Assembly: GCA_020696385.1 (NCBI GenBank)
Contig: JAEHCQ010000006.1
Coordinates: 1-64,000 of the forward strand
DNA length: 64,000 bases
Source of the DNA: Methanobacteriota archaeon
Lineage (GTDB): Archaea; Thermoplasmatota; Thermoplasmata; SG8-5; JAGLSY01
Direction: 5' to 3'
The translations under genes and the position numbers were made by a program. The notes under the pieces are model-generated. The model saw only the letters and a program-made list of their open reading frames with translations, did no database searches and was not told where the DNA came from. Shown piece after piece: positions 1,179-62,802 of the stretch. Every line of letters begins with the position of its first letter. Within the stretch, counting starts at the first letter, position 1.

Positions 1179-2357
1179 ATGACAGATATTGTTATAGCCA
1201 GTGCGGTCAGGACCGCCATAGGCAAATTTGGAGGATCGTTGAAGAACATTAGAGCACCAGAGCTTGGCGGGATCTGCATCGCAGATGCCGTGAAACGCTC
1301 GGGGCTTGAGAAGACCGATATTGACGAAGTGATAATGGGCAATGTGGTCGGTGCAGGTCTTGGTCAAAATCCGGCTAGACAGGCCATGATAGCCGCAGAT
1401 ATGCCCGTCGAGATCGGTGCATTCACCGTCAATAAGGTATGTGGATCTGGAATGAAAGCCGTTGTTCTGGCTGCTCAGGCCATCAAGGCAGGGGATGCCA
1501 AGGCCATAGTTGCAGGTGGTATGGAGAACATGGACATGGCTCCTTATCTGCTGTACAAGGCAAGGAATGGATATCGCCTGGGTGATGATAAGATAGTGGA
1601 TTCCATGGTCAATGATGGTCTGTGGGATATCTACAATAACTATCACATGGGAAATACTGGCGAGATCGTTGCCGAAAAATTCAATGTCACCCGTGAGGAT
1701 GCGGACGTTATGGCGATGGCCAGCAATCAAAAAGCCGCCGCCGCAATAGCAGGTGGTAAGTTCAAAGAAGAGATCATACCTGTTGAGATCCCTCAGAGAA
1801 AGGGCGACCCCATCATCTTCGATACAGATGAAGGTGTGAGAGCCGAGACCACGATGGAATCTCTGGGACGGCTAAGGCCAGCTTTCAGAAAGGATGGACT
1901 CGTAACCGCTGGAAATGCATCACAGATAAGTGATGGCGGATCTGCCATGGTGATCATGAGCAAGGATTATGCTGATGAGAAGGGAATTAAGCCACTGGCA
2001 ACTATCAGGGACTATGGGACAAGGGGTCTCATACCCGAGCTTGTGATGGAAGCTCCAATACCAGCAACAAGATATGTTATGGAAAAGGCTGGCTTGGGAG
2101 TGAATGATATCGATATCTGGGAACATAATGAGGCCTTTGCATCCGCATCTTGCGCTGTTGTGAAGGAACTGGGCATACCTCTGGACAAGTTCAATGTTCA
2201 CGGAGGAGCGGTCGCACTGGGTCACCCGATCGGAGCCAGTGGTACACGTGTTCTGACGACCATGGTCTATGCCATGAAGGACAGGGGTGCTAAGCGTGGC
2301 TTAGCCACCATCTGTCTTGGCGGAGGAAATGCAGTCACTATGGTACTGGAGAGGTAA
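1179..2357 (+). CDS. atoB: Acetyl-CoA C-acetyltransferase (thiolase II)
   Basis: NKVCGSG catalytic Cys, [12 protein letters not shown] and CLGGG motifs; RBS GGAGGGAG. Confidence 0.97.
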
Positions 2358-2449: not shown

Positions 2450-3301
2450 GAAATAAAGAAAATAGGAGTCATCGGAGCTGGCCAGATGGGTGCGGGTATA
2501 GCCCAGGTCGCTGCGATCGCAGGATATGAAGTTGTATTGAATGATATCAAACAGGAATTTGTGGATCGCGGAATGGCGACCATAAACAAGTCCATGGCAA
2601 AGGGTGTGGAGAAGGGCAAGATGGAGCAGTCTGTGATGGACGGCGCACTAACCCGAATAAAGACCACCCTGGATCTGAAGGATATGTCGGATGTCGACCT
2701 GGTCGTCGAGGCCATCATAGAGGATTTCGGACTGAAGAGTCAGATATTCAAAACATTGGATGATATCTGTCCACCACATGCCATACTCGCCAGCAATACA
2801 TCATCGATATCCATTACAAAGCTGGCAGCTTGTACAAGCCGCCCGGAGAAGTTCATCGGAATGCATTTCATGAATCCAGTTCCATTAATGAAGCTGGTCG
2901 AGGTCATTCGTGGTATCCTCACAGATGATGAGACTGCACAGGCAATTACCCAGGCAAGCGAGAAGATGGGCAAGATACCTGTGGAGTGCAATGATTACCC
3001 TGGCTTTGTGGCCAACCGTCTGCTTCTGCCAATGCTGAACGAGGCAATGTACTGTGTGATGGAAGGAGTTGGAGAGCCAGAGAACATAGACCAGATAATG
3101 AAGCTGGGAATGAACCACCCGATGGGACCACTGGCATTGGCCGATCTGATCGGTCTGGATACCTGCCTGCACATCATGGAAGTTCTGCATGAAGGTCTTG
3201 GCGATTCCAAATACAGACCATGCCCATTGCTCGTGAAGATGGTGGATGCTGGACTCATGGGAAGGAAATCCGGTCGCGGATTCTACGATTATTCGAGGTG
3301 A
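2447..3301 (+). CDS. hbd: 3-hydroxybutyryl-CoA dehydrogenase
   Basis: GAGQMG Rossmann motif, EAIIE, SNTSS, GMHFMNP, PMGP; GGAGG RBS before ATG 2447 (in-frame ATG also at 2432). Confidence 0.96.
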
Positions 3302-3365
3302 TTTGAATGCGAGAACAAAGTTATTGCATTGAAAATTCCGAAATACAATGGAGGAATTAGATATG
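3295..3365 (+). repeat. Intercistronic double-hairpin element copy B, with mini-ORF MREQSYCIENSEIQWRN* (3307-3360)
   Basis: TTGAATGCGAGAACAAAGTTATTGCATTGAA is 28/31 identical to 39744-39774; second hairpin nearly identical to copy A. Confidence 0.8.
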
Positions 3366-24857: not shown

Positions 24858-27101
24858 TCATAATGAAGCTCCGACTATCGCGCACTGGCCAATGGATATC
24901 CCACCATCTCCATTGGGTACACGATGATGTCGCACAAGTTCATATCCTTGTGCGGCCAGTTCCTTCATGATCATATCGGTTATTGGAATATTGTAACTGA
25001 CACCTCCAGTCAGACCAATGCGCTTGATGCCTTTATCTTCGGCAGCCTGCACGGCCACATCACATAGAGCCTTCACAAGCTTGGAAACATAAGCACTGGC
25101 CAGCTTCTCACGCTTGCCACTATATGTGGGCTTGGATACTATGTCAAGTAGCTCTCCAAAGGGCGTGATATGATCTATTACGCCGTCTTTAATATTGAAT
25201 GAATTAAATAAATCTTTATTTATATTTGTATCGGAATTAATAAGTCTCTCTAATTTCATTGCTGGCTCGCCATCATATGTTCGGGAATCGCACACTCCAA
25301 GCGTGTGTGAAACCGCATCAAGAACACGACCCGCGCTTGTTGTTCTGGGCGCATTCTCTATCATCTTTACGAAGATATCATGTTCTTCCCGGGTGGCATT
25401 GTGGAATGGTCTATTTGTTAGACTGGCCATTGCAAAGGCCAGTCTCATTGGCTCCTTCACAGCGGCCTCTCCGCCAAGTAGCGGGAACTCGGCAAGATGG
25501 CCCACCCTCTCATAACTTGATAGAGTTGCAGCCAGTATTTCCCCACCCCAGGCATTTCCATCCGCACCATATCCTGTGCCATCCAGCGTCATGACGACAG
25601 CCTCATCAATGCCAGCATCCACAAGCAAGCTGGCAGCATGTGCCCAGTGATGCTGTATCTCCATTATTTCGCAATCGAACTCGCTGGCCATCCTCTTGGC
25701 AAGCTTTCGATTTCCATAACCTGGATGCATATCGATGCCGATGCCATTCACTTCCCATATCCCGCGAAGATGCATCATGTGCCTTGTCGCGCTCTCCAAG
25801 AAATCCAGCACACCGTATTTGCTGGATTTACCAATGTACTGGCTGGGATAGATGAAGCCCGCAGATCCAGTAGCTGAAGTGAGGTTCTCATGTGCTCCCA
25901 ACCCGATGAAATTACCTGTCTGGCTTATCTCAAGAGGAACAGGTACGAATCCTCTTGATCTCCTGATGAAATAATTATGGCCAGCATGTCGAATTATGAG
26001 GGAATCATCACATCGATTGGCTATCTTTCTGTTATGGAGGAGATAGCCCCCTATTCCGTGAATTCCAGAAATTCCGGGGCTGGAAGCACCGAGCCCGAGT
26101 ATATCTGGCTCGGTGATCGCCATTGGCTCCCCCTGTGGATTTGCGGATGTCATTATCACCGCGCCAATATTTTTATCAAGATATTTGAATAATAAATGAT
26201 GGACTGCTGAATAAGGAAGCATGATACCGATATTGTCCAGTCCAGGAGATATGATATCCAAATCCTGGCGGTCTCGCTTTTTGACCAATACAATGGGTCT
26301 TTCACGGGATGTCAACAAGGCCATTTCTTCCTCATTGGCCTTGGTATATCTGTACACGGCCTTCGCGTCCCTGATCATTATCGCAAAGGGTTTTTCTTCT
26401 CTGCCATACCATTTTCTAAGGGTGGTGCCAGCTTTCAACGTGCACACGATATGAGAGCCGCCCCAGCCCTTCATGATGCCTAATTGGCCAGATGAGATAA
26501 GGTCGGCAAATCCTTCTATTCCGCCCTCGACAGACTGGCCAGCAGCATCGTACAATGTAAAATCAGGCCCGCAATCCGGGCATGAAATTGTTTGCGCGTG
26601 AAACCTACGATCTCCCATCCTATTATACTCGCCTTGGCATGACTGGCAAAGTGGAAAATCACCCATCGTGGTAAGTGGGCGATCGTAAGGCAGGTCCTGG
26701 ATTATTGAAAAGCGAGCACCACAATTCGTGCAGTTGGTGAAGGGAAATCCATGCCTTCTATCTGCATCATCCAGCAATTCGGAAAGGCATGCGTCGCAGA
26801 TTGAAGTGTCCGGGGGTATGGGAGAGGAACGACTGCCCTTTTGACTGGGCAAGATAATAAAATCATCATTGTCTGGCTGCTCCTCGAACTTCTCCACAAG
26901 GTCGATCCTGGCCAGTGGGGGAAGTTCATCCTTTAATATCTGGATGAACTTATCTGTTTTTGATCTACTACCCGACAATAATACCTCCACGCTCGAGCCA
27001 TTATTGCGAACGTGGCCGCTGAGGTTCATGCTAACGGCCAGCTTTACTACTGCTGGCCGAAAACCTACGCCTTGAACAACACCGTGAATATGCAGTTTCA
27101 T
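24858..27101 (-). CDS. hypF: [NiFe]-hydrogenase maturation carbamoyltransferase
   Basis: GVVQGVGFRP acylphosphatase motif, two CxxC-x18-CxxC zinc fingers, QHHWAH, DGTGYG.DG..WGGE, DGGISIGQ. Confidence 0.97.
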   Translation of the reverse strand: MKLHIHGVVQGVGFRPAVVKLAVSMNLSGHVRNNGSSVEVLLSGSRSKTDKFIQILKDELPPLARIDLVEKFEEQPDNDDFIILPSQKGSRSSPIPPDTSICDACLSELLDDADRRHGFPFTNCTNCGARFSIIQDLPYDRPLTTMGDFPLCQSCQGEYNRMGDRRFHAQTISCPDCGPDFTLYDAAGQSVEGGIEGFADLISSGQLGIMKGWGGSHIVCTLKAGTTLRKWYGREEKPFAIMIRDAKAVYRYTKANEEEMALLTSRERPIVLVKKRDRQDLDIISPGLDNIGIMLPYSAVHHLLFKYLDKNIGAVIMTSANPQGEPMAITEPDILGLGASSPGISGIHGIGGYLLHNRKIANRCDDSLIIRHAGHNYFIRRSRGFVPVPLEISQTGNFIGLGAHENLTSATGSAGFIYPSQYIGKSSKYGVLDFLESATRHMMHLRGIWEVNGIGIDMHPGYGNRKLAKRMASEFDCEIMEIQHHWAHAASLLVDAGIDEAVVMTLDGTGYGADGNAWGGEILAATLSSYERVGHLAEFPLLGGEAAVKEPMRLAFAMASLTNRPFHNATREEHDIFVKMIENAPRTTSAGRVLDAVSHTLGVCDSRTYDGEPAMKLERLINSDTNINKDLFNSFNIKDGVIDHITPFGELLDIVSKPTYSGKREKLASAYVSKLVKALCDVAVQAAEDKGIKRIGLTGGVSYNIPITDMIMKELAAQGYELVRHHRVPNGDGGISIGQCAIVGASL

Positions 27102-27153
27102 TGATGTTCAGATATGTGATGGTGTATAGAATTGTTTTGGCAAATATCCGAGC

Positions 27154-27240
27154 GAGCAGGCTCAGGCGAATTTTTCTTGTTAGCCTTCTTCTTCTTTTTG
27201 AGAGCCTGAGCCAGCACAGTGAGGGTTACAAAAAGAAGAA
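27154..27240. repeat. Pseudoknot-forming repeat unit 1
   Basis: Arms in order A-B-A'-B': GAGCAGGCTCAGGC (27154-67), TTCTTCTTTTTG (27189-200), GCCTGAGCCAGCAC (27204-17), CAAAAAGAAGAA (27229-40). Confidence 0.8.
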
Positions 27241-27291
27241 ATTGGGGCGGAAACCTACGCCTTGAACTACGCCGTGTATGTGGAACTTCAT
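27226..27291 (-). pseudogene. Duplicated hypF 5' fragment, MKFHIHGVVQGVGFRP-NFFFL*
   Basis: First 16 codons match hypF with mostly third-position differences; preceded by the same AAAACAATTCTATA promoter-like motif. Confidence 0.9.
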
Positions 27292-27345
27292 TGATTCAGC
27301 AATCATAAGTTAGTATAGAATTGTTTTGTATGCATCTAAATTTTC

Positions 27346-27431
27346 GAGCAGGGTGGGGCGAGTTTCTTGTTTTGTCCGTCTTTTTTCTTTTGGAGCCCCA
27401 CCCAGCACAGGAAATTTTTAAAAGAAAAAAG
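27346..27431. repeat. Pseudoknot-forming repeat unit 2 (diverged, covarying)
   Basis: GAGCAGGGTGGGGC / GCCCCACCCAGCAC and CTTTTTTCTTTTG / TAAAAGAAAAAAG: stem sequence changed while pairing is kept. Confidence 0.8.
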
Positions 27432-27464
27432 TGGGTATGGAATTGTTTTGGCAAATAACCGAAC

Positions 27465-27597
27465 GAGCAGGCTGAATCTCAGTAAAACTGAGCTTTCAGA
27501 ATCTCGGCAAAGCCGAGCTCCGGCGAATTTATCTTGTTAGCCTTCTTCTTCTTTTTGAGAGCCTGAGCCAGCACAGTGAGGGTCACAAAAAGAAGAA
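27465..27597. repeat. Pseudoknot-forming repeat unit 3, with a 46-bp twin-hairpin insert
   Basis: Near-identical to unit 1 except for insert 27474-27519 (CTCAGT-AAA-ACTGAG and CTCGGC-AAA-GCCGAG). Confidence 0.8.
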
Positions 27598-27648
27598 ATT
27601 GGGGCGGAAACCTACGCCTTGGACTACGCCGTGGATCTGAAGTTTCAT
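27583..27648 (-). pseudogene. Second duplicated hypF 5' fragment, MKLQIHGVVQGVGFRP-NFFFL*
   Basis: Same breakpoint after GFRP as the 27226-27291 copy; has its own AACAATTCTATA motif upstream. Confidence 0.9.
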
Positions 27649-27713
27649 GCACTTATACAATTATCAGTTACTATAGAATTGTTACGGAGGATAAATTGGA
27701 TATTTGAGCAGCT

Positions 27714-28289
27714 TCACAGCTCATAAGCTTCAACAAACTTCTTGATCTTCTTCTTAAGTTCTGGATGCCTCTCCATTTCCAACATCATGATGGCTGTCTG
27801 GAGCTTCCAAATCGTATAAAAATTCAAATTGGAATCCGGCTTCAGGTCTTTCATCTTCTCCGAGACAACCTTCTCTATCTCCAGAAAAGCCTCCTTGGCC
27901 AGCTTGTCCTGCTCGCCTTTACCATCATATCCGATATCCTCAAGAAGGGTGGCAATGGTCCCGCTGGTATTCTCCCATATTTTGAGAAGTTCATCCTTTT
28001 CGGGAACCGCGTCGATACTGGGTGCCATGAAGAATATCTTGGCCGTTCGCCCATATATCTTCTTTGGGATATGGTGATCCTTCTTCTCGCCCGTCTGCTC
28101 GATGATGCCCGCATTCACCAGTTTCTCAACATGTCGGTATATGGTGGATTGGTCCTTCTCAAGTATGCTGGCCATCTGCTCTATTGTGAGATCATTGAGC
28201 CTCAGTGATTCCAAGATCGTTCTTCTGGTCTCGTCTATCATGAGCTTTATTGTAGCCGGATCGTCCACTATCCTTATCTCATCAACCAT
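27714..28289 (-). CDS. ArsR/wHTH transcriptional regulator (191 aa)
   Basis: DETRRTILESL...LTIEQMASIL.KDQSTIYRHVEKL..AGII...YGRTAK; true start MVDEI (the longer track ORF overlaps the MATE gene). Confidence 0.9.
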   Translation of the reverse strand: MVDEIRIVDDPATIKLMIDETRRTILESLRLNDLTIEQMASILEKDQSTIYRHVEKLVNAGIIEQTGEKKDHHIPKKIYGRTAKIFFMAPSIDAVPEKDELLKIWENTSGTIATLLEDIGYDGKGEQDKLAKEAFLEIEKVVSEKMKDLKPDSNLNFYTIWKLQTAIMMLEMERHPELKKKIKKFVEAYEL

Positions 28290-28331
28290 TGCCTTGAATA
28301 TATGACTTGGATTATTTATATCTTTGTACAC

Positions 28332-28388
28332 TTGCACAATCATGCAAATGTTTAAATAACTCATTTTCATATATGCATATGCATGCAA
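28332..28388. promoter_or_regulatory. Twin TGCA-N6-TGCA operator-like palindromes flanking a TATA box
   Basis: TTGCA-caatca-TGCAA (28332-47), TTTAAATA (28351-58), ATGCA-tatgca-TGCAA (28373-88) in the divergent ArsR/MATE promoter. Confidence 0.6.
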
Positions 28389-29726
28389 GTGTCTCGTATG
28401 GACAAGAGATTGAGAAAGAAGATATTCAGCTTCGCCTGGCCGATAATATTGACCAATCTCTTCGCGACCATCATGATGACCGTGAACATGATAATGGTGG
28501 GCAGACTGGGGCCTGCGGCTGTTGCGGGTGTCGGCCTGGGGGGCCAGGTGGTTCAGATATCCTTCATGGTCATGATGGCAGTAAGTACCGGAACCATAGC
28601 CCTCGTTGCCAGGTACACGGGAGCCAAAAAGCCCAAAATGGCAAACCGCGCCCTCAAACAATCGCTCCTTCTGGGTCTGGTCCTTTCCATTCCAATAACC
28701 ATTCTGGGTTGGTTCTTCGGGACAGAGTTCCTTGCCATGTTCGGCTCTGAGCCAGATGTTCTTGAGTTCGGCTCCATCTATGTTAAATTCATCTTCCTGG
28801 GAACTACTTTCCAATTCATTGAATTCCTCTCAGCTGCCGCACTCAGGGGCTCGGGAGATATGAAGACCCCACTGATCATTGGCATCCTGAACAATGTGGT
28901 GAACATATTCTTCGGCTATGTGCTGATATTCGGCGAGCTGGGATTTCCCGAAATGGGGGTCAAGGGCGCGGCAATCGGCAATGTCATAGCTTTCATAATC
29001 GGAGGTGTGGCCTATATCATCATGCTCTCGCGGGGCAAGCTTAGACTTAAGCTGGAACGCAATCACGTGATATTCGACAGATCCATCATGCGCCGAATAT
29101 TGAAGGTCGGCACTCCTGCCGCCGCTGAACAGATACTTATCCAGACTGGATTTCTGGTATATACTTTCATAATCGTGTATTTCGGAACAGAGGCCCTCGC
29201 CGCCCACCAGATCGGTATGAGAATTCAAGGATTGGCTTTCATGCCTGGCATAGGGTTCTCCATGGCAGCAACTGCTCTCGTTGGCCAATACCTGGGAGCC
29301 AAAAAACCAAAGACCTCCGAAAGGTCAGCAGTGGAATCCGCCAAGCTTTCCGCATTGTCCATGACAGCCATAGGTGTGGTGTTATTCTTCCTCGCAGACC
29401 CAATGGCCAGACTTTTCATCAGTGATCTGGACACTTTGAAATACACGGCTCTGTGGATCCGACTTCTGGCCTTCAGCATGCCTGCCATCGGCCTTTTCTT
29501 CACTCTGTCCGGAGGATTGAGGGGGGCGGGAGACACTCGTTGGCCTCTCTATGCGTCCACCTTTGGCATCTATGCAATTCGATTACCCTTCGCGGCATTC
29601 CTGGGATTTTACATGGGCCTGGGAATAATGGGGGCCTGGATAGCCTTCATCATAGAATATTATGTGAGGTCTGTTATAATATTATGGCGGTTCAGGTCTG
29701 GCAAGTGGAAAGAAGTCAAGGTTTGA
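28383..29726 (+). CDS. MATE family efflux transporter
   Basis: 12-TM pattern; LRGSGDMKTPL, MGVKGAA, LRGAGDTRWP; GKWK terminus. Confidence 0.95.
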   Translation: MQVSRMDKRLRKKIFSFAWPIILTNLFATIMMTVNMIMVGRLGPAAVAGVGLGGQVVQISFMVMMAVSTGTIALVARYTGAKKPKMANRALKQSLLLGLVLSIPITILGWFFGTEFLAMFGSEPDVLEFGSIYVKFIFLGTTFQFIEFLSAAALRGSGDMKTPLIIGILNNVVNIFFGYVLIFGELGFPEMGVKGAAIGNVIAFIIGGVAYIIMLSRGKLRLKLERNHVIFDRSIMRRILKVGTPAAAEQILIQTGFLVYTFIIVYFGTEALAAHQIGMRIQGLAFMPGIGFSMAATALVGQYLGAKKPKTSERSAVESAKLSALSMTAIGVVLFFLADPMARLFISDLDTLKYTALWIRLLAFSMPAIGLFFTLSGGLRGAGDTRWPLYASTFGIYAIRLPFAAFLGFYMGLGIMGAWIAFIIEYYVRSVIILWRFRSGKWKEVKV

Positions 29727-57724: not shown

Positions 57725-58297
57725 TTATGCCGGTAATGGATGATCAAAGTAATCTTGTTTGATGTCATCTCCTGTAATGTCAAGATATATCTGCGTGGTC
57801 GTCAGGGATGAATGACCTAACATCTTCTGTACAGTCCTTAGATTCATACCCGCCTTGAGGCAATGCACGGCGAAGGAGTGCCTCAGCATGTGTGGGTGGA
57901 CATGCTGGGTGATGCCCGCTCTTTTCCCGTATTCTGCTACTAATCGCTCTATCTGGCGAGTGGATATCCTCTCGCTGACAGCGGATTGGAATAAGAATCC
58001 CGTTTCAGATATGTGGTCGCCAGTTCTCTCATTACTTATGAAATGCTCCACCATGTCCAGTGTATAGTGGTCGACAGGCACTATGCGGTCCTTGCCGCCC
58101 TTTCCCTGTCTAACAATAAGATCATTATCATTGAACATGATATTCTCTATTTTGAGATCGGCCAACTCTGAAACTCGTAATCCACACCTGTAAAGGATCC
58201 TGAGGATCAATCGATCCCGGATATTATTCCTATCCGGTGCATTAAGTAATTTCTGGATCTCGCGCTCTTTTAGATATTTTGGCAGTGTCTTCGCCAT
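57725..58297 (-). CDS. XerC/D-like tyrosine recombinase, catalytic domain only (~190 aa)
   Basis: LPKYL start, GLRVSE, GKGGK.R, HPHMLRHSFA, LGHSSL.TTQIY; no N-terminal core-binding domain. Confidence 0.92.
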   Translation of the reverse strand: MAKTLPKYLKEREIQKLLNAPDRNNIRDRLILRILYRCGLRVSELADLKIENIMFNDNDLIVRQGKGGKDRIVPVDHYTLDMVEHFISNERTGDHISETGFLFQSAVSERISTRQIERLVAEYGKRAGITQHVHPHMLRHSFAVHCLKAGMNLRTVQKMLGHSSLTTTQIYLDITGDDIKQDYFDHPLPA

Positions 58298-62126: not shown

Positions 62127-62802
62127 TAATCACAACAATCACAATGTGGATCCACATAGAAGTCATAGGACCAATATTCCCGAAGTGGTGCTGGCTCGTT
62201 TCAAGGACAATGATTCTCTGATCAAGTCAGTGGCTGGTCTTTTACCGGGTAAAAGAGTTCTGGTCACCAAGGCCAGCAAAGAGCAATTGACCCTTCTTCT
62301 TGATAATTTCGATCCGTGTGTGGAGATGATGGATGCGGTATCTGGAACTATGGTGATATCTGATACGAGTACCCGTGCGCCAGATATAATTGGCTCCATC
62401 GCGGTTCTCAGTGCTGGATCATCGGATTATTTCGTGGCAGAGGAGGCAAGTGTCTCTGCCGAATACCTGGGTCTGAAAGTGCACCGCTTTTATGACTGCG
62501 GGGTGGCTGGCTTCCACAGAGTGGATGAGGCTTTGCAGGTAATTGATGAGAACAAGGTGGATGCGATAATTGTTGTAGCTGGGATGGAAGGCGCCCTTCC
62601 ATCAGTCATCGCCAGCAGGGTGAAACAGCCCATGATAGCTGTACCCACTTCAGTTGGCTACGGGACAAGTTATGAGGGCATTGCCGCGCTTTTGTCAATG
62701 CTCAATTCCTGTGCTCCCGGGATATCTGTGGTGAATATTGATAATGGATTTGGAGCTGCTGTCTGCGCCTTCAAGATGATGAAATGGATTCATGATAAGT
62801 AG
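62119..62802 (+). CDS. larB: LarB NaAD carboxylase/hydrolase
   Basis: R...PEVV, AGSSD..VAEEA, D.GVAG, AGMEGALPSV, PTSVGYG, LNSC.PG..VVNIDNGFGA. Confidence 0.94.
   Translation: MNDNHNNHNVDPHRSHRTNIPEVVLARFKDNDSLIKSVAGLLPGKRVLVTKASKEQLTLLLDNFDPCVEMMDAVSGTMVISDTSTRAPDIIGSIAVLSAGSSDYFVAEEASVSAEYLGLKVHRFYDCGVAGFHRVDEALQVIDENKVDAIIVVAGMEGALPSVIASRVKQPMIAVPTSVGYGTSYEGIAALLSMLNSCAPGISVVNIDNGFGAAVCAFKMMKWIHDK

Follow-up and report, generated by a model that had tools for sequence, protein, structure and literature searches.

Why should the start of one gene be found three times in succession, with a single intact gene at the end of the series? This question is raised by hypF in a 64-kb stretch of archaeal DNA (hereafter the window, i.e., the whole stretch analysed, positions 1 to 64,000 of JAEHCQ010000006.1 and part of contig C47 in our numbering), which belongs to a Thermoplasmata metagenome-assembled genome (MAG) of 2.28 Mb in 50 contigs, designated G000. 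On the minus strand of the window, an array (27054-27712) located between the gene of an ArsR-type regulator (27714-28814) and hypF (24858-27101) contains hypF codons 1-16 three times, a promoter-like 12-mer four times and a repeat of ~90 nt, here called R, three times. From the make-up of this array, the other copies of R in the genome and the corresponding loci of relatives, we consider it probable that R-linked gene-end cassettes spread via homology-anchored recombination and displace older gene ends.

Anatomy of the hypF array

Read along the minus strand, the array opens with a 12-mer (AACAATTCTATA, 27672-27683) that is continuous with the upstream intergenic region, followed by a 23-nt leader and the orphan hypF start X3' (codons 1-16, MKLQIHGVVQGVGFRP, 27601-27648, with a frame to the TGA at 27583). 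X3' runs into the repeat R3 (27459-27602), which by repeat comparison is of the R2 lineage and carries a nested 52-nt insert, K, at 27470-27521 in the 3' arm of its stem. Next comes an orphan 12-mer (AACAATTCCATA, 27436-27447), severed by the repeat Rmid (27344-27434, CCACTTTTTTC.. subfamily, delimited by nhmmer and by its flank duplication), which stands directly behind it. The remaining part consists of a further 12-mer (27314-27325), a leader, the orphan start X2' (codons 1-16, MKFHIHGVVQGVGFRP, 27244-27291, with a frame to the TAA at 27226), the repeat R2 (27148-27245, CCAATTTCTTC.. subfamily with the 3' end ..CCTGCTCGCTCGG; nhmmer match 27245-27153 plus a CTCGG tail) and, finally, the 12-mer of the working gene (AACAATTCTATA, 27125-27136, ~23 nt 5' of the ATG and its presumed promoter), a leader and the working hypF start (27101). 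The 12-mers were located by motif matching and the orphan starts by reading of the sequence. The working gene itself (24858-27101, ATG 27099-27101, 747 aa) is an intact open reading frame (ORF) with all five HypF Pfam domains, namely Acylphosphatase, zf-HYPF (x2), Sua5_yciO_yrdC, HypF_C and HypF_C_2.

A first-pass annotation, made from the letters of this DNA alone, had reported four promoter motifs on the minus strand and three copies of hypF codons 1-16, and both counts were confirmed. The 12-mer AACAATTCYATA has four matches in the window, every one within the array, while 0.03 are expected by chance and none of 100 shuffles of the window reached that count. A repeat search returned three instances of the 51-nt start region and two of a 132-nt unit. 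The three ATGs lie at 27101 (the real gene), 27291 and 27648, and their peptides read MKLHIH.., MKFHIH.. and MKLQIH..GVVQGVGFRP. Both orphan frames pass from ..GFRP into R and end after NFFFL (TAA 27226-27228; TGA 27583-27585), and in each orphan a frame of 21 codons begins with an ATG and is preceded by a promoter-like 12-mer. The description of the extra copies as breaking off after GFRP and running into the repeat thus stands; that they are cut at the same codon holds in part only, as the CCC codon that ends each orphan overlaps with R's own C-rich head (CCCCAA), and the cut after GFRP is partly the head of R imitating a proline codon.

The three repeats do not share one history. R2 and R3 are identical at 96% over 85 nt and constitute a single lineage stacked twice. 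Rmid belongs to a different subfamily, is placed behind a 12-mer alone and possesses a 16-nt flank duplication (CAAAACAATTCYATAC; score 27 vs. a shuffle maximum of 20); its closest other copy (90%) is found at C11:662803-662706. It is a separate insertion, independent of R2 and R3.

The 12-mer was also considered as a general promoter consensus and rejected, since the genome contains AA[CT]AATTCTATA only seven times. Boxes of the generic AATWTATA type are enriched 5' of its ORFs (65 vs. 10 expected). The GCCAAAACAATTCTATA context of the working 12-mer also precedes hypF in the sister genome G002 and in the cassettes of G014, a genome of another family.

R copies and duplicated gene ends throughout the genome

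Iterated nhmmer searches retrieved 42 copies of R in the 2.28-Mb genome. They are non-coding, ~85-100 nt in length, and fall into two main subfamilies according to their head and T-run (CCCCAC-TTTTTTCTTTT or CGGAAGCC-TTTTCTTTT). The 3' end ..CCTGCTCGCTCGG is common to R copies, and conservation ceases beyond it. In 31/42 copies a duplication of the flank, 17 to ~270 nt long and 80-100% identical, abuts the head of R and recurs a few to a few dozen nt past its 3' end. The orientation is the same in all 31: the 3'-side copy runs into a complete gene, and the 5'-side copy is a truncated gene end. Where the gene is an ORF of 120 aa or more, the duplication covers its 3' end in 14 cases and its 5' end in five; the remaining 12 concern tRNA ends, small ORFs or inner array units. 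Besides hypF, the 5'-end cases include C11:662802, C46:162751 and C46:40820. Other repeat copies with duplicated gene ends, which the first-pass annotation had suggested looking for, are therefore present in number; that the arrangement is a genome-wide property of R, mostly at gene 3' ends and tRNA ends, goes beyond what it had proposed.

R was found at the ends of over 19 different protein genes and at several tRNA ends; the duplicated sequence is specific to each target and varies widely in length. The head of R is variably shortened and has 0-7 nt in common with the target (29 junctions listed, without statistical control). Among the tRNA cases, the duplicated piece at C11:632379 is a tRNA 3' end, R adjoins a complete tRNA at C11:492508, and within C50:1-3000 two complete, diverged tRNA-Phe(GAA) genes (1231-1318 and 1710-1796, minus strand) flank an R at 1558-1686 (plus strand). 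The flank duplication of this last copy (C50:1558) extends over ~270 nt at 85% identity, so the whole tRNA gene is doubled. Two fragments and a longer copy resembling the T-arm/acceptor 3' half of a tRNA accompany the R copies at C44:62079-62162 and 62258-62390; in this array (C44:61200-63300) both tRNA-like fragments are cut by R, and neither ARAGORN nor Rfam calls the tRNA-like 3' half at C44:62079/62258 a tRNA.

Two further observations concern the flanks of single copies. The R copies at C11:636870-636956 and C22:174340-174426 share ~60 nt of similar 3' flank (AATTG.AAT.ATATGCA.GGCAT.., TTCGAGCATGCCC), which suggests a longer composite repeat or a flank carried along from the source copy. 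In the left flank of another R (C46:40560-40820), the upstream gene end is present as two to three tandem units of ~62 nt (GGGTCTGACCATTGCGAATTTATTATGGAATGGTCC..) with no R between them; G002 has one such unit.

Divergence between paired gene ends

The differences between the hypF starts are mostly T/C, A/G, T/A and G/C exchanges at third positions, by which the protein is kept. Sorted by codon positions 1/2/3, they number 1/0/9 between the working start and the copy at 27291 (binomial P = 3.6e-4 against 1/3), 0/0/9 between the working start and the copy at 27648 (P = 5e-5 against 1/3) and 1/0/5 between the two orphans. Within the latter pair the differences are unevenly spread: the R-proximal 33 nt of X2' and X3' contain one, while codons 1-5 differ at 5/15 nt and the leader at 5/23. 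Genome-wide, the mismatches between paired copies amount to 31/19/90 on codon positions 1/2/3 (n = 140), counted in downstream ORFs of at least 100 aa and taking in some array-internal alignments that dilute the signal (e.g., C2:12406 at 10/5/4). Both remarks of the first-pass annotation on this point are borne out, i.e., that the hypF differences are mostly third-position (9/10 and 9/9) and that such divergence is unlike neutral decay, as the larger genome-wide sample is likewise not random by codon position.

Moreover, in 8/14 pairs with at least four mismatches these are clustered in blocks, the longest clean run lying beyond that of shuffles (P < 0.02). Third-position bias and clustering together argue that the paired copies diverged inside working genes and were juxtaposed by recombination later, which would make them alleles and not decaying duplicates. 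As for diversity-generating retroelements, we found no adenine-specific pattern at hypF and no RVT_1 match in G000.

Presence and absence in relatives

All genomes compared are MAGs, and two to three sister genomes were available for polarity. Both sister genomes G001 and G002 retain the same gene order around hypF, with a single start and no repeat. In G002, the orthologous sites are devoid of R at seven of the eight loci examined (hypF, C3, C46:100231, C46:40820, C11:577134, C33:252812 and C11:662802). At the eighth, C33:199745, a truncated end, R and the complete end (X'-R-X) are found in both G000 and G002; here the two R copies show no difference along 59 consecutive nt, a stretch that takes in the variable stem, the flanks are ~85% identical, and the R of G000 has two additional nested mini-inserts. 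In turn, G001 carries an R (C459, ~3215-3311) in the intergenic region orthologous to C33:252812 in opposite orientation, joined to the 3' end of the other, convergent gene and with a copy pair of its own (stops TAA vs. TAG). R is mobile in an order of uncultured marine Thermoplasmata, and young at most of its sites.

Beyond the sister genomes, the same architecture was seen in 8/11 distinct copies from other MAGs that are flanked by 25 nt or more on either side (9/12 rows, two of which are the same record). In a sample of 41 genomes, R-like matches were obtained in all four members of family f1 and in 12/13 members of family f4 of the order, in none of families f2 and f3, and as single weak matches in three further families. 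A strict R-core pattern was matched at ten loci in four Thermoplasmata/'Methanobacteriota' MAGs of the genome collection, and the same single strict pattern had no match in viral contigs. Metagenome contigs with HypF provided four loci which, at 44-47% protein identity, are too distant for use. Of 22 genomes of the order, only two have a truncated hypF joined to R, and they come from different families.

The second of these genomes, G014, is the most informative one for the direction of change. A 216-aa CobW/HypB-type gene, its stop and 6 nt are followed by an orphan start (M A K I T V R G V V Q G V G F), an R of the CAATTTCTTC subfamily (as in the window), 118 nt, GCCAAAACAATTCTATAC, a leader and a second start (M R I I I Q G T V Q G V G F R R), and then by another R, 39 nt, the same promoter and leader, and the working hypF (M R I I I Q G I V Q G V G F R P.., five Pfam domains). 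In all six other genomes fetched of this family, the hypB-type stop is separated by 4-8 nt from an uninterrupted hypF start without R, and these starts are orthologous to the G014 orphan. Over 180 nt, the cassette of G014 matches window positions 27149-27328 at 81% identity, far above the between-family background, and its promoter context and start are of the type native to the family of the window. The orphan and the working cassette share GTCCAGGGCGTCGGCTTC. Since the orphan matches the native start in 6/6 relatives, G014 shows a native operonic start that was orphaned and a working promoter, leader and first codons that came with R. The incoming unit has a conserved anchor, and the former end is kept alongside. 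As the junction is found in 2/22 genomes, one per family, and the cassettes are 81% identical, a horizontal spread of a hypF-specific cassette fits better than ancient inheritance.

These comparisons bear on several claims of the first-pass annotation. Its proposal that a foreign hypF 5' end arrives with the repeat and leaves the old start behind as a record is supported, and is seen directly in G014. One orphan fragment does correspond to a hypF start in a relative, X3' being 96% identical to that of G002 (76/79; leader 22/23), and the suggested comparison of the locus across relatives revealed that the array is absent in G001 and G002 and that a similar one exists in G014. For the window itself, the polarity we infer from two sister genomes and short segments would be the same as in G014.

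Structure of R and nested mini-repeats

R contains a stem of 12 bp (alignment columns 29-40 with 76-87) with strong covariation, exemplified by the pairs 39-77 (GC28/CG11), 38-78 (GC26/CG10), 37-79 (GC17/AT14/TA4) and 36-80 (CG22/TA5/GC2/AT2). Of the stem cells, 79% are paired, compared to a mean of 65% in shuffles (maximum 69% among 500) and to 20-57% in shifted registers. The T-run of the head could pair with the A-rich loop, giving a pseudoknot order. No Rfam family matches R, the best matches being chance-level microRNA and small nucleolar RNA models (E at least 1.3) with scores far below gathering. Since T-runs are present on both strands, R is a plausible archaeal terminator.

The insert K of R3 (window 27470-27521, minus strand) is a 52-nt mini-repeat with hairpins of its own. 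Other copies are located at C33:72924-72975, C33:25752-25800, C33:199887-199935, C48:101062-101113 and C11:480477-480523, and in three R copies (R3, C48:101062 and C33:199887) K occupies the identical point of the stem 3' arm. Its absence from the orthologous R of G002 indicates that K is a secondary insertion. We also noted a two-hairpin mini-repeat of ~65 nt, H (..AATCAAGC..GCTTGAT AAAATAGATGC..GCATCT AAAAA), with 12 BLAST matches, six of them within R. H sits in the A-rich loop of R copies, sometimes twice per R (examples: C44:146251-146317, C2:12512-12553 and C46:40864-40923), and is missing from the orthologous R in G002.

Search for an enzyme

Following an all-against-all comparison of the 2626 ORFs, ten ORFs from multi-copy families were checked; none is a transposase, and three of the ten have no Pfam match. 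TnpB has no match in G000 and, in R-bearing families, sub-threshold matches only; reverse transcriptase likewise has none in G000, and neither enzyme is associated with R-bearing families. Tyrosine recombinases are represented by four Phage_integrase matches in G000, with no phyletic link to R-bearing families. No integrase is found beside the array or the R copies inspected, in agreement with the first-pass statement that no transposase or recombinase adjoins the array; the nearest Phage_integrase match (57776-58279) is ~30 kb distant, and nothing ties it to R. It corresponds to a XerA-like tyrosine recombinase encoded on the minus strand (E = 1.7e-48), with orthologues in most relatives.

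As to the upstream neighbour of the array, the minus-strand gene at 27714-28814 encodes an ArsR-type helix-turn-helix (HTH) regulator (Pfam HTH_5/HTH_20), and the gene order is the same in G001 and G002. Its longest frame of 366 aa begins with TTG, the HTH domain lies at residues 184-250, and the true start may be further downstream.

Proposed displacement of gene ends by R-linked cassettes

How might such arrays come into being? In the reading that we favour, i.e., displacement of gene ends by R-linked cassettes, the 5' head of R is attached within a gene's terminal region, between some dozens and some hundreds of nt in, and its 3' end faces a complete copy of that gene end, so that the gene stays whole and a truncated orphan remains 5' of R. 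The unit travelling to hypF would consist of R, the spacer, the promoter, the leader and the first ~16 codons. It would enter hypF by recombination anchored in the highly conserved DNA encoding GVVQGVGFRP, bring in a new promoter and start, and shift the resident start upstream as an orphan, with integration being completed at the head of R, whose T-rich sequence probably ends the orphan transcript. Repeated entry would lead to the order seen in the window: X3' (oldest, of the native type), R3, the promoter piece, Rmid, X2', R2 and the working hypF. As R2 and R3 are 96% identical and X2' and X3' share only the R-proximal 33 nt, the simplest account would be one cassette lineage entering twice with a crossover within the conserved coding stretch. 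X3' would then have been resident first, X2' would derive from the first cassette and the present start from the second. The synonymous differences of the orphans could be those of alleles that worked in other lineages or at earlier times. A gene not yet bearing R might first acquire it through a long staggered insertion, through template switching or by an illegitimate joint. Seen directly are the anatomy of the array, the generality of the arrangement, the covarying stem, the presence and absence of R in relatives, the polarity in G014, the different allelic origin of the R-bounded copies and the cassette with the working gene end; recombination as the mechanism, the polarity in the window and the role of R as a terminator are inferences. 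A wider generalization, namely that R represents a new class of enzyme-less mobile elements, structured modules of ~90 nt which use a spare gene end (promoter and start, or last codons and stop) as a homing arm, are moved by host recombination across lineages and families, and swap promoters and termini on the way while the gene stays intact and dated stacks of earlier gene ends are left, is one that we put forward tentatively, as a real possibility.

Several findings weigh against this account. The searches for TnpB, reverse transcriptase, tyrosine recombinases and multi-copy ORFs yielded no enzyme for R, and the homology usable for anchoring may be ~20 nt only. The two G014 junctions differ (GGCTTC joined to CAATTTC vs. 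..CGCCGC joined to AATTTC) and are not simply inherited. The helix of T-run and A-run is invariant and consequently receives no support from covariation, and the single-sequence folding z-scores are modest (-1.5 and -2.2), each fold picking one helix. All the genomes are MAGs, and the polarity in the window depends on short segments in two sister genomes. The 14 nt 5' of the distal 12-mer (10/14) and the working leader (20/23) resemble G001. The copy with anomalously high similarity to G002 is the orphan at two loci, hypF and C11:662802, but the working one at C3, and at C46:40820 it is the promoter of the working copy, not that of the orphan, that resembles G002. The spacer TATTTGCC behind R2 and R3 was considered as a G002-like donor mark and dropped, given that GCCAAAAC before the 12-mer is conserved across families and that R tails have a weak ..ATTTGC.. 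tendency.

The G001-like segments lead to the rival that has to be weighed most carefully, in which the polarity in the window is reversed: R and the fragment blocks would be foreign, introduced by a Campbell-type single crossover in the 12-mer, the working start would be native, and the orphans would never have served. The G001-like outer 14 nt and working leader fit this scheme about equally well, and, together with the G002-like leader of the distal orphan (22/23), they form the reciprocal mosaic it predicts. X3' also looks like a recent import, at 96% identity to G002 within surroundings of 76-86%, and so does the orphan at C11:662802 (96% vs. 82-85%). However, the G014 orphan is clearly a native start. 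Moreover, at every other locus G002 is the nearest relative (86-92%, with G001 at 71-82%), hence a native start is expected to be G002-like, and that X2' and X3' share the R-proximal 33 nt alone puts the crossover within the coding sequence. As the GCCAAAAC context preceding the 12-mer is conserved across families, it is no lineage marker. On balance we regard reversed polarity as unlikely. Displacement by cassettes must also be set against the view that R is a transposon with an unusually long target-site duplication made in situ and that the orphans are decaying duplicates. Some duplications are indeed 100% identical and start a few nt from the R 3' end (32 nt at C33:1509, 22 nt at C11:73003, and C33:199745), the 5' head of R is variably shortened with 0-7 nt of microhomology, and some such primary event is still required to bring R to new genes. 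Yet neutral decay predicts about one third of the differences at third positions, whereas 90/140 were seen genome-wide and 9/10 and 9/9 at hypF; the mismatches occur in blocks in 8/14 pairs; and in G014 the operonic orphan without a promoter and the working start with its promoter cassette are unrelated upstream of the shared motif, a contrast that duplication in place cannot produce. Long target-site duplication as the sole explanation is contradicted by these data, and we hold the transposon view to be very improbable.

A recombinase acting from elsewhere would be another source of partial gene copies. If R were a miniature derivative of an integrative element, moved in trans by a tyrosine recombinase, the duplicated gene ends would be its attL and attR. 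Such elements are classically recognized by an insert that lies between a partial and a complete copy of a tRNA or gene end (PMC9897764), and one archaeal integrase recombines any homologous pair of ~100 bp (PMC5495485), though nothing found here connects an enzyme of that type with R; the genome has its four Phage_integrase matches. Still, such a recombinase would have to accept more than 19 protein genes and several tRNA ends, whose own duplicated sequences are of very different length; none is encoded beside the array or the inspected R copies, integrase counts are unlinked to R-bearing families, and the R core (single strict pattern) has no match in viral contigs, which leaves this explanation improbable. 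Because all data are short-read MAGs, one may also suspect that strain variants of a single hypF start were strung together at the repeat during assembly. Against such an artefact, which we judge highly improbable, speak the structural differences between the units (the nested insert in R3, another subfamily and junction for Rmid), the X'-R-X arrangement at one orthologous locus in two independent MAGs, the hypF array in a third MAG and the same architecture in 8/11 copies of other MAGs. The alternative raised by the first-pass annotation itself, that hypF is regulated through the extra starts, retained as upstream ORFs or decoy promoters, draws on the promoter-like 12-mer, the ATG and the 21-codon frame of each orphan. 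It is hardly credible, as the array is missing from both sister species with the same gene order, which have a single start and no repeat, and from 20/22 genomes of the order, no leader ORF is conserved before hypF in G001 and G002, and the same architecture is found at gene 3' ends and tRNA ends, where the logic of upstream ORFs is inapplicable.

Should displacement by R-linked cassettes be true, promoters and gene termini would be replaced horizontally by means of a tiny non-coding repeat, in archaea almost without classical insertion sequences, and stacks of orphans would form a natural, genome-readable record of how genes have passed from one species, or even family, of uncultured sediment Thermoplasmata to another. 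In G014 the operonic hypF would have been uncoupled from hypB and given its own promoter, i.e., the element would rewire regulation. In the annotation of such MAGs, orphans would also account for spurious calls of short ORFs, for tRNAs called only in part and for broken contigs.

Relation to known systems

In the parts of the literature covered, including an archaeal insertion sequence survey (PMC13343696) and a review of transposable elements of the miniature inverted-repeat type (MITEs; PMC10969869), supplements excluded, there is no account of R or of repeat-bounded arrays of synonymous gene ends. Comparison with several known kinds of elements is nevertheless instructive.

Integron attC sites have conserved boxes flanking a stem that is variable in sequence yet paired, and the covarying stem of R is reminiscent of them, a comparison made by anatomy alone. 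In contrast to integrons, we found no integron integrase, no attI and no ORF cassettes, the 'cassettes' between R copies being fragments of neighbouring genes. Short and long interspersed elements (SINE/LINE) insert by target-primed reverse transcription and leave a fixed 3' end, 5' truncation with microhomology and long, variable target duplications. R differs from them in that reverse transcriptase has no match in G000 and that promoter DNA, which lies upstream of any transcript, forms part of the duplicated unit.

With MITEs and repetitive extragenic palindromic (REP)-type repeats, as presented in the part of the review cited, R has in common that it is small, non-coding, multi-copy and lineage-restricted, with a stem structure and nested insertions (PMC10969869). 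Unlike in these repeats, the joint of R lies inside genes, not between them. Terminal inverted repeats of the MITE type are lacking, as the ends (CCCCAC or CGGAAGCC with the T-run vs. CCTGCTCGCTCGG) are not complementary and the inverted repeats are internal only. Instead of a fixed short target duplication, the flanks measure 17 to ~270 nt and are often diverged, and no partner transposase of an insertion sequence was found (ten multi-copy ORFs checked; TnpB without matches in G000).

The resemblance to integrative elements is more specific. These produce a partial and a complete gene copy around inserts of 9-23 kb, with 44-bp repeats that have a 1-bp difference in the case described in the cited part of PMC9897764; the gene remains functional, and the two copies may differ since one comes from the element (PMC9897764). 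Likewise, 31/42 R copies are inserts flanked by a partial and a complete end of the target gene. R is distinguished by its length of ~90 nt, the fact that it encodes nothing, the lack of an adjacent integrase, more than 30 'att' sequences of 17 to ~270 nt and a variable 5' head.

Arrays of Rhs, contact-dependent inhibition (CDI) and type VI secretion system (T6SS) effector-immunity genes come closest to the proposed history. There, orphan arrays are proposed to form through sequential displacement, by homology-facilitated illegitimate recombination, the incoming module being anchored in a conserved stretch of the resident gene; the incoming end takes the working position, and strings of orphaned ends record the events (PMC5361080, in the part cited). 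In recombination of this type, which the joint envisaged for R resembles, one end is homologous and the other illegitimate (PMC3240628, likewise in part). The R arrays differ in what is displaced. In Rhs, CDI and T6SS loci these are toxin tips and immunity genes under diversifying selection, with joints that have no dedicated repeat, whereas R arrays consist of synonymous ends (5' or 3') of housekeeping genes and of tRNA ends, with a structured ~90-nt repeat at each orphan and many unrelated genes involved. R is thus a combination of known kinds, uniting a structured intergenic repeat with displacement or integration that duplicates gene ends, and is a member of no single one of them.

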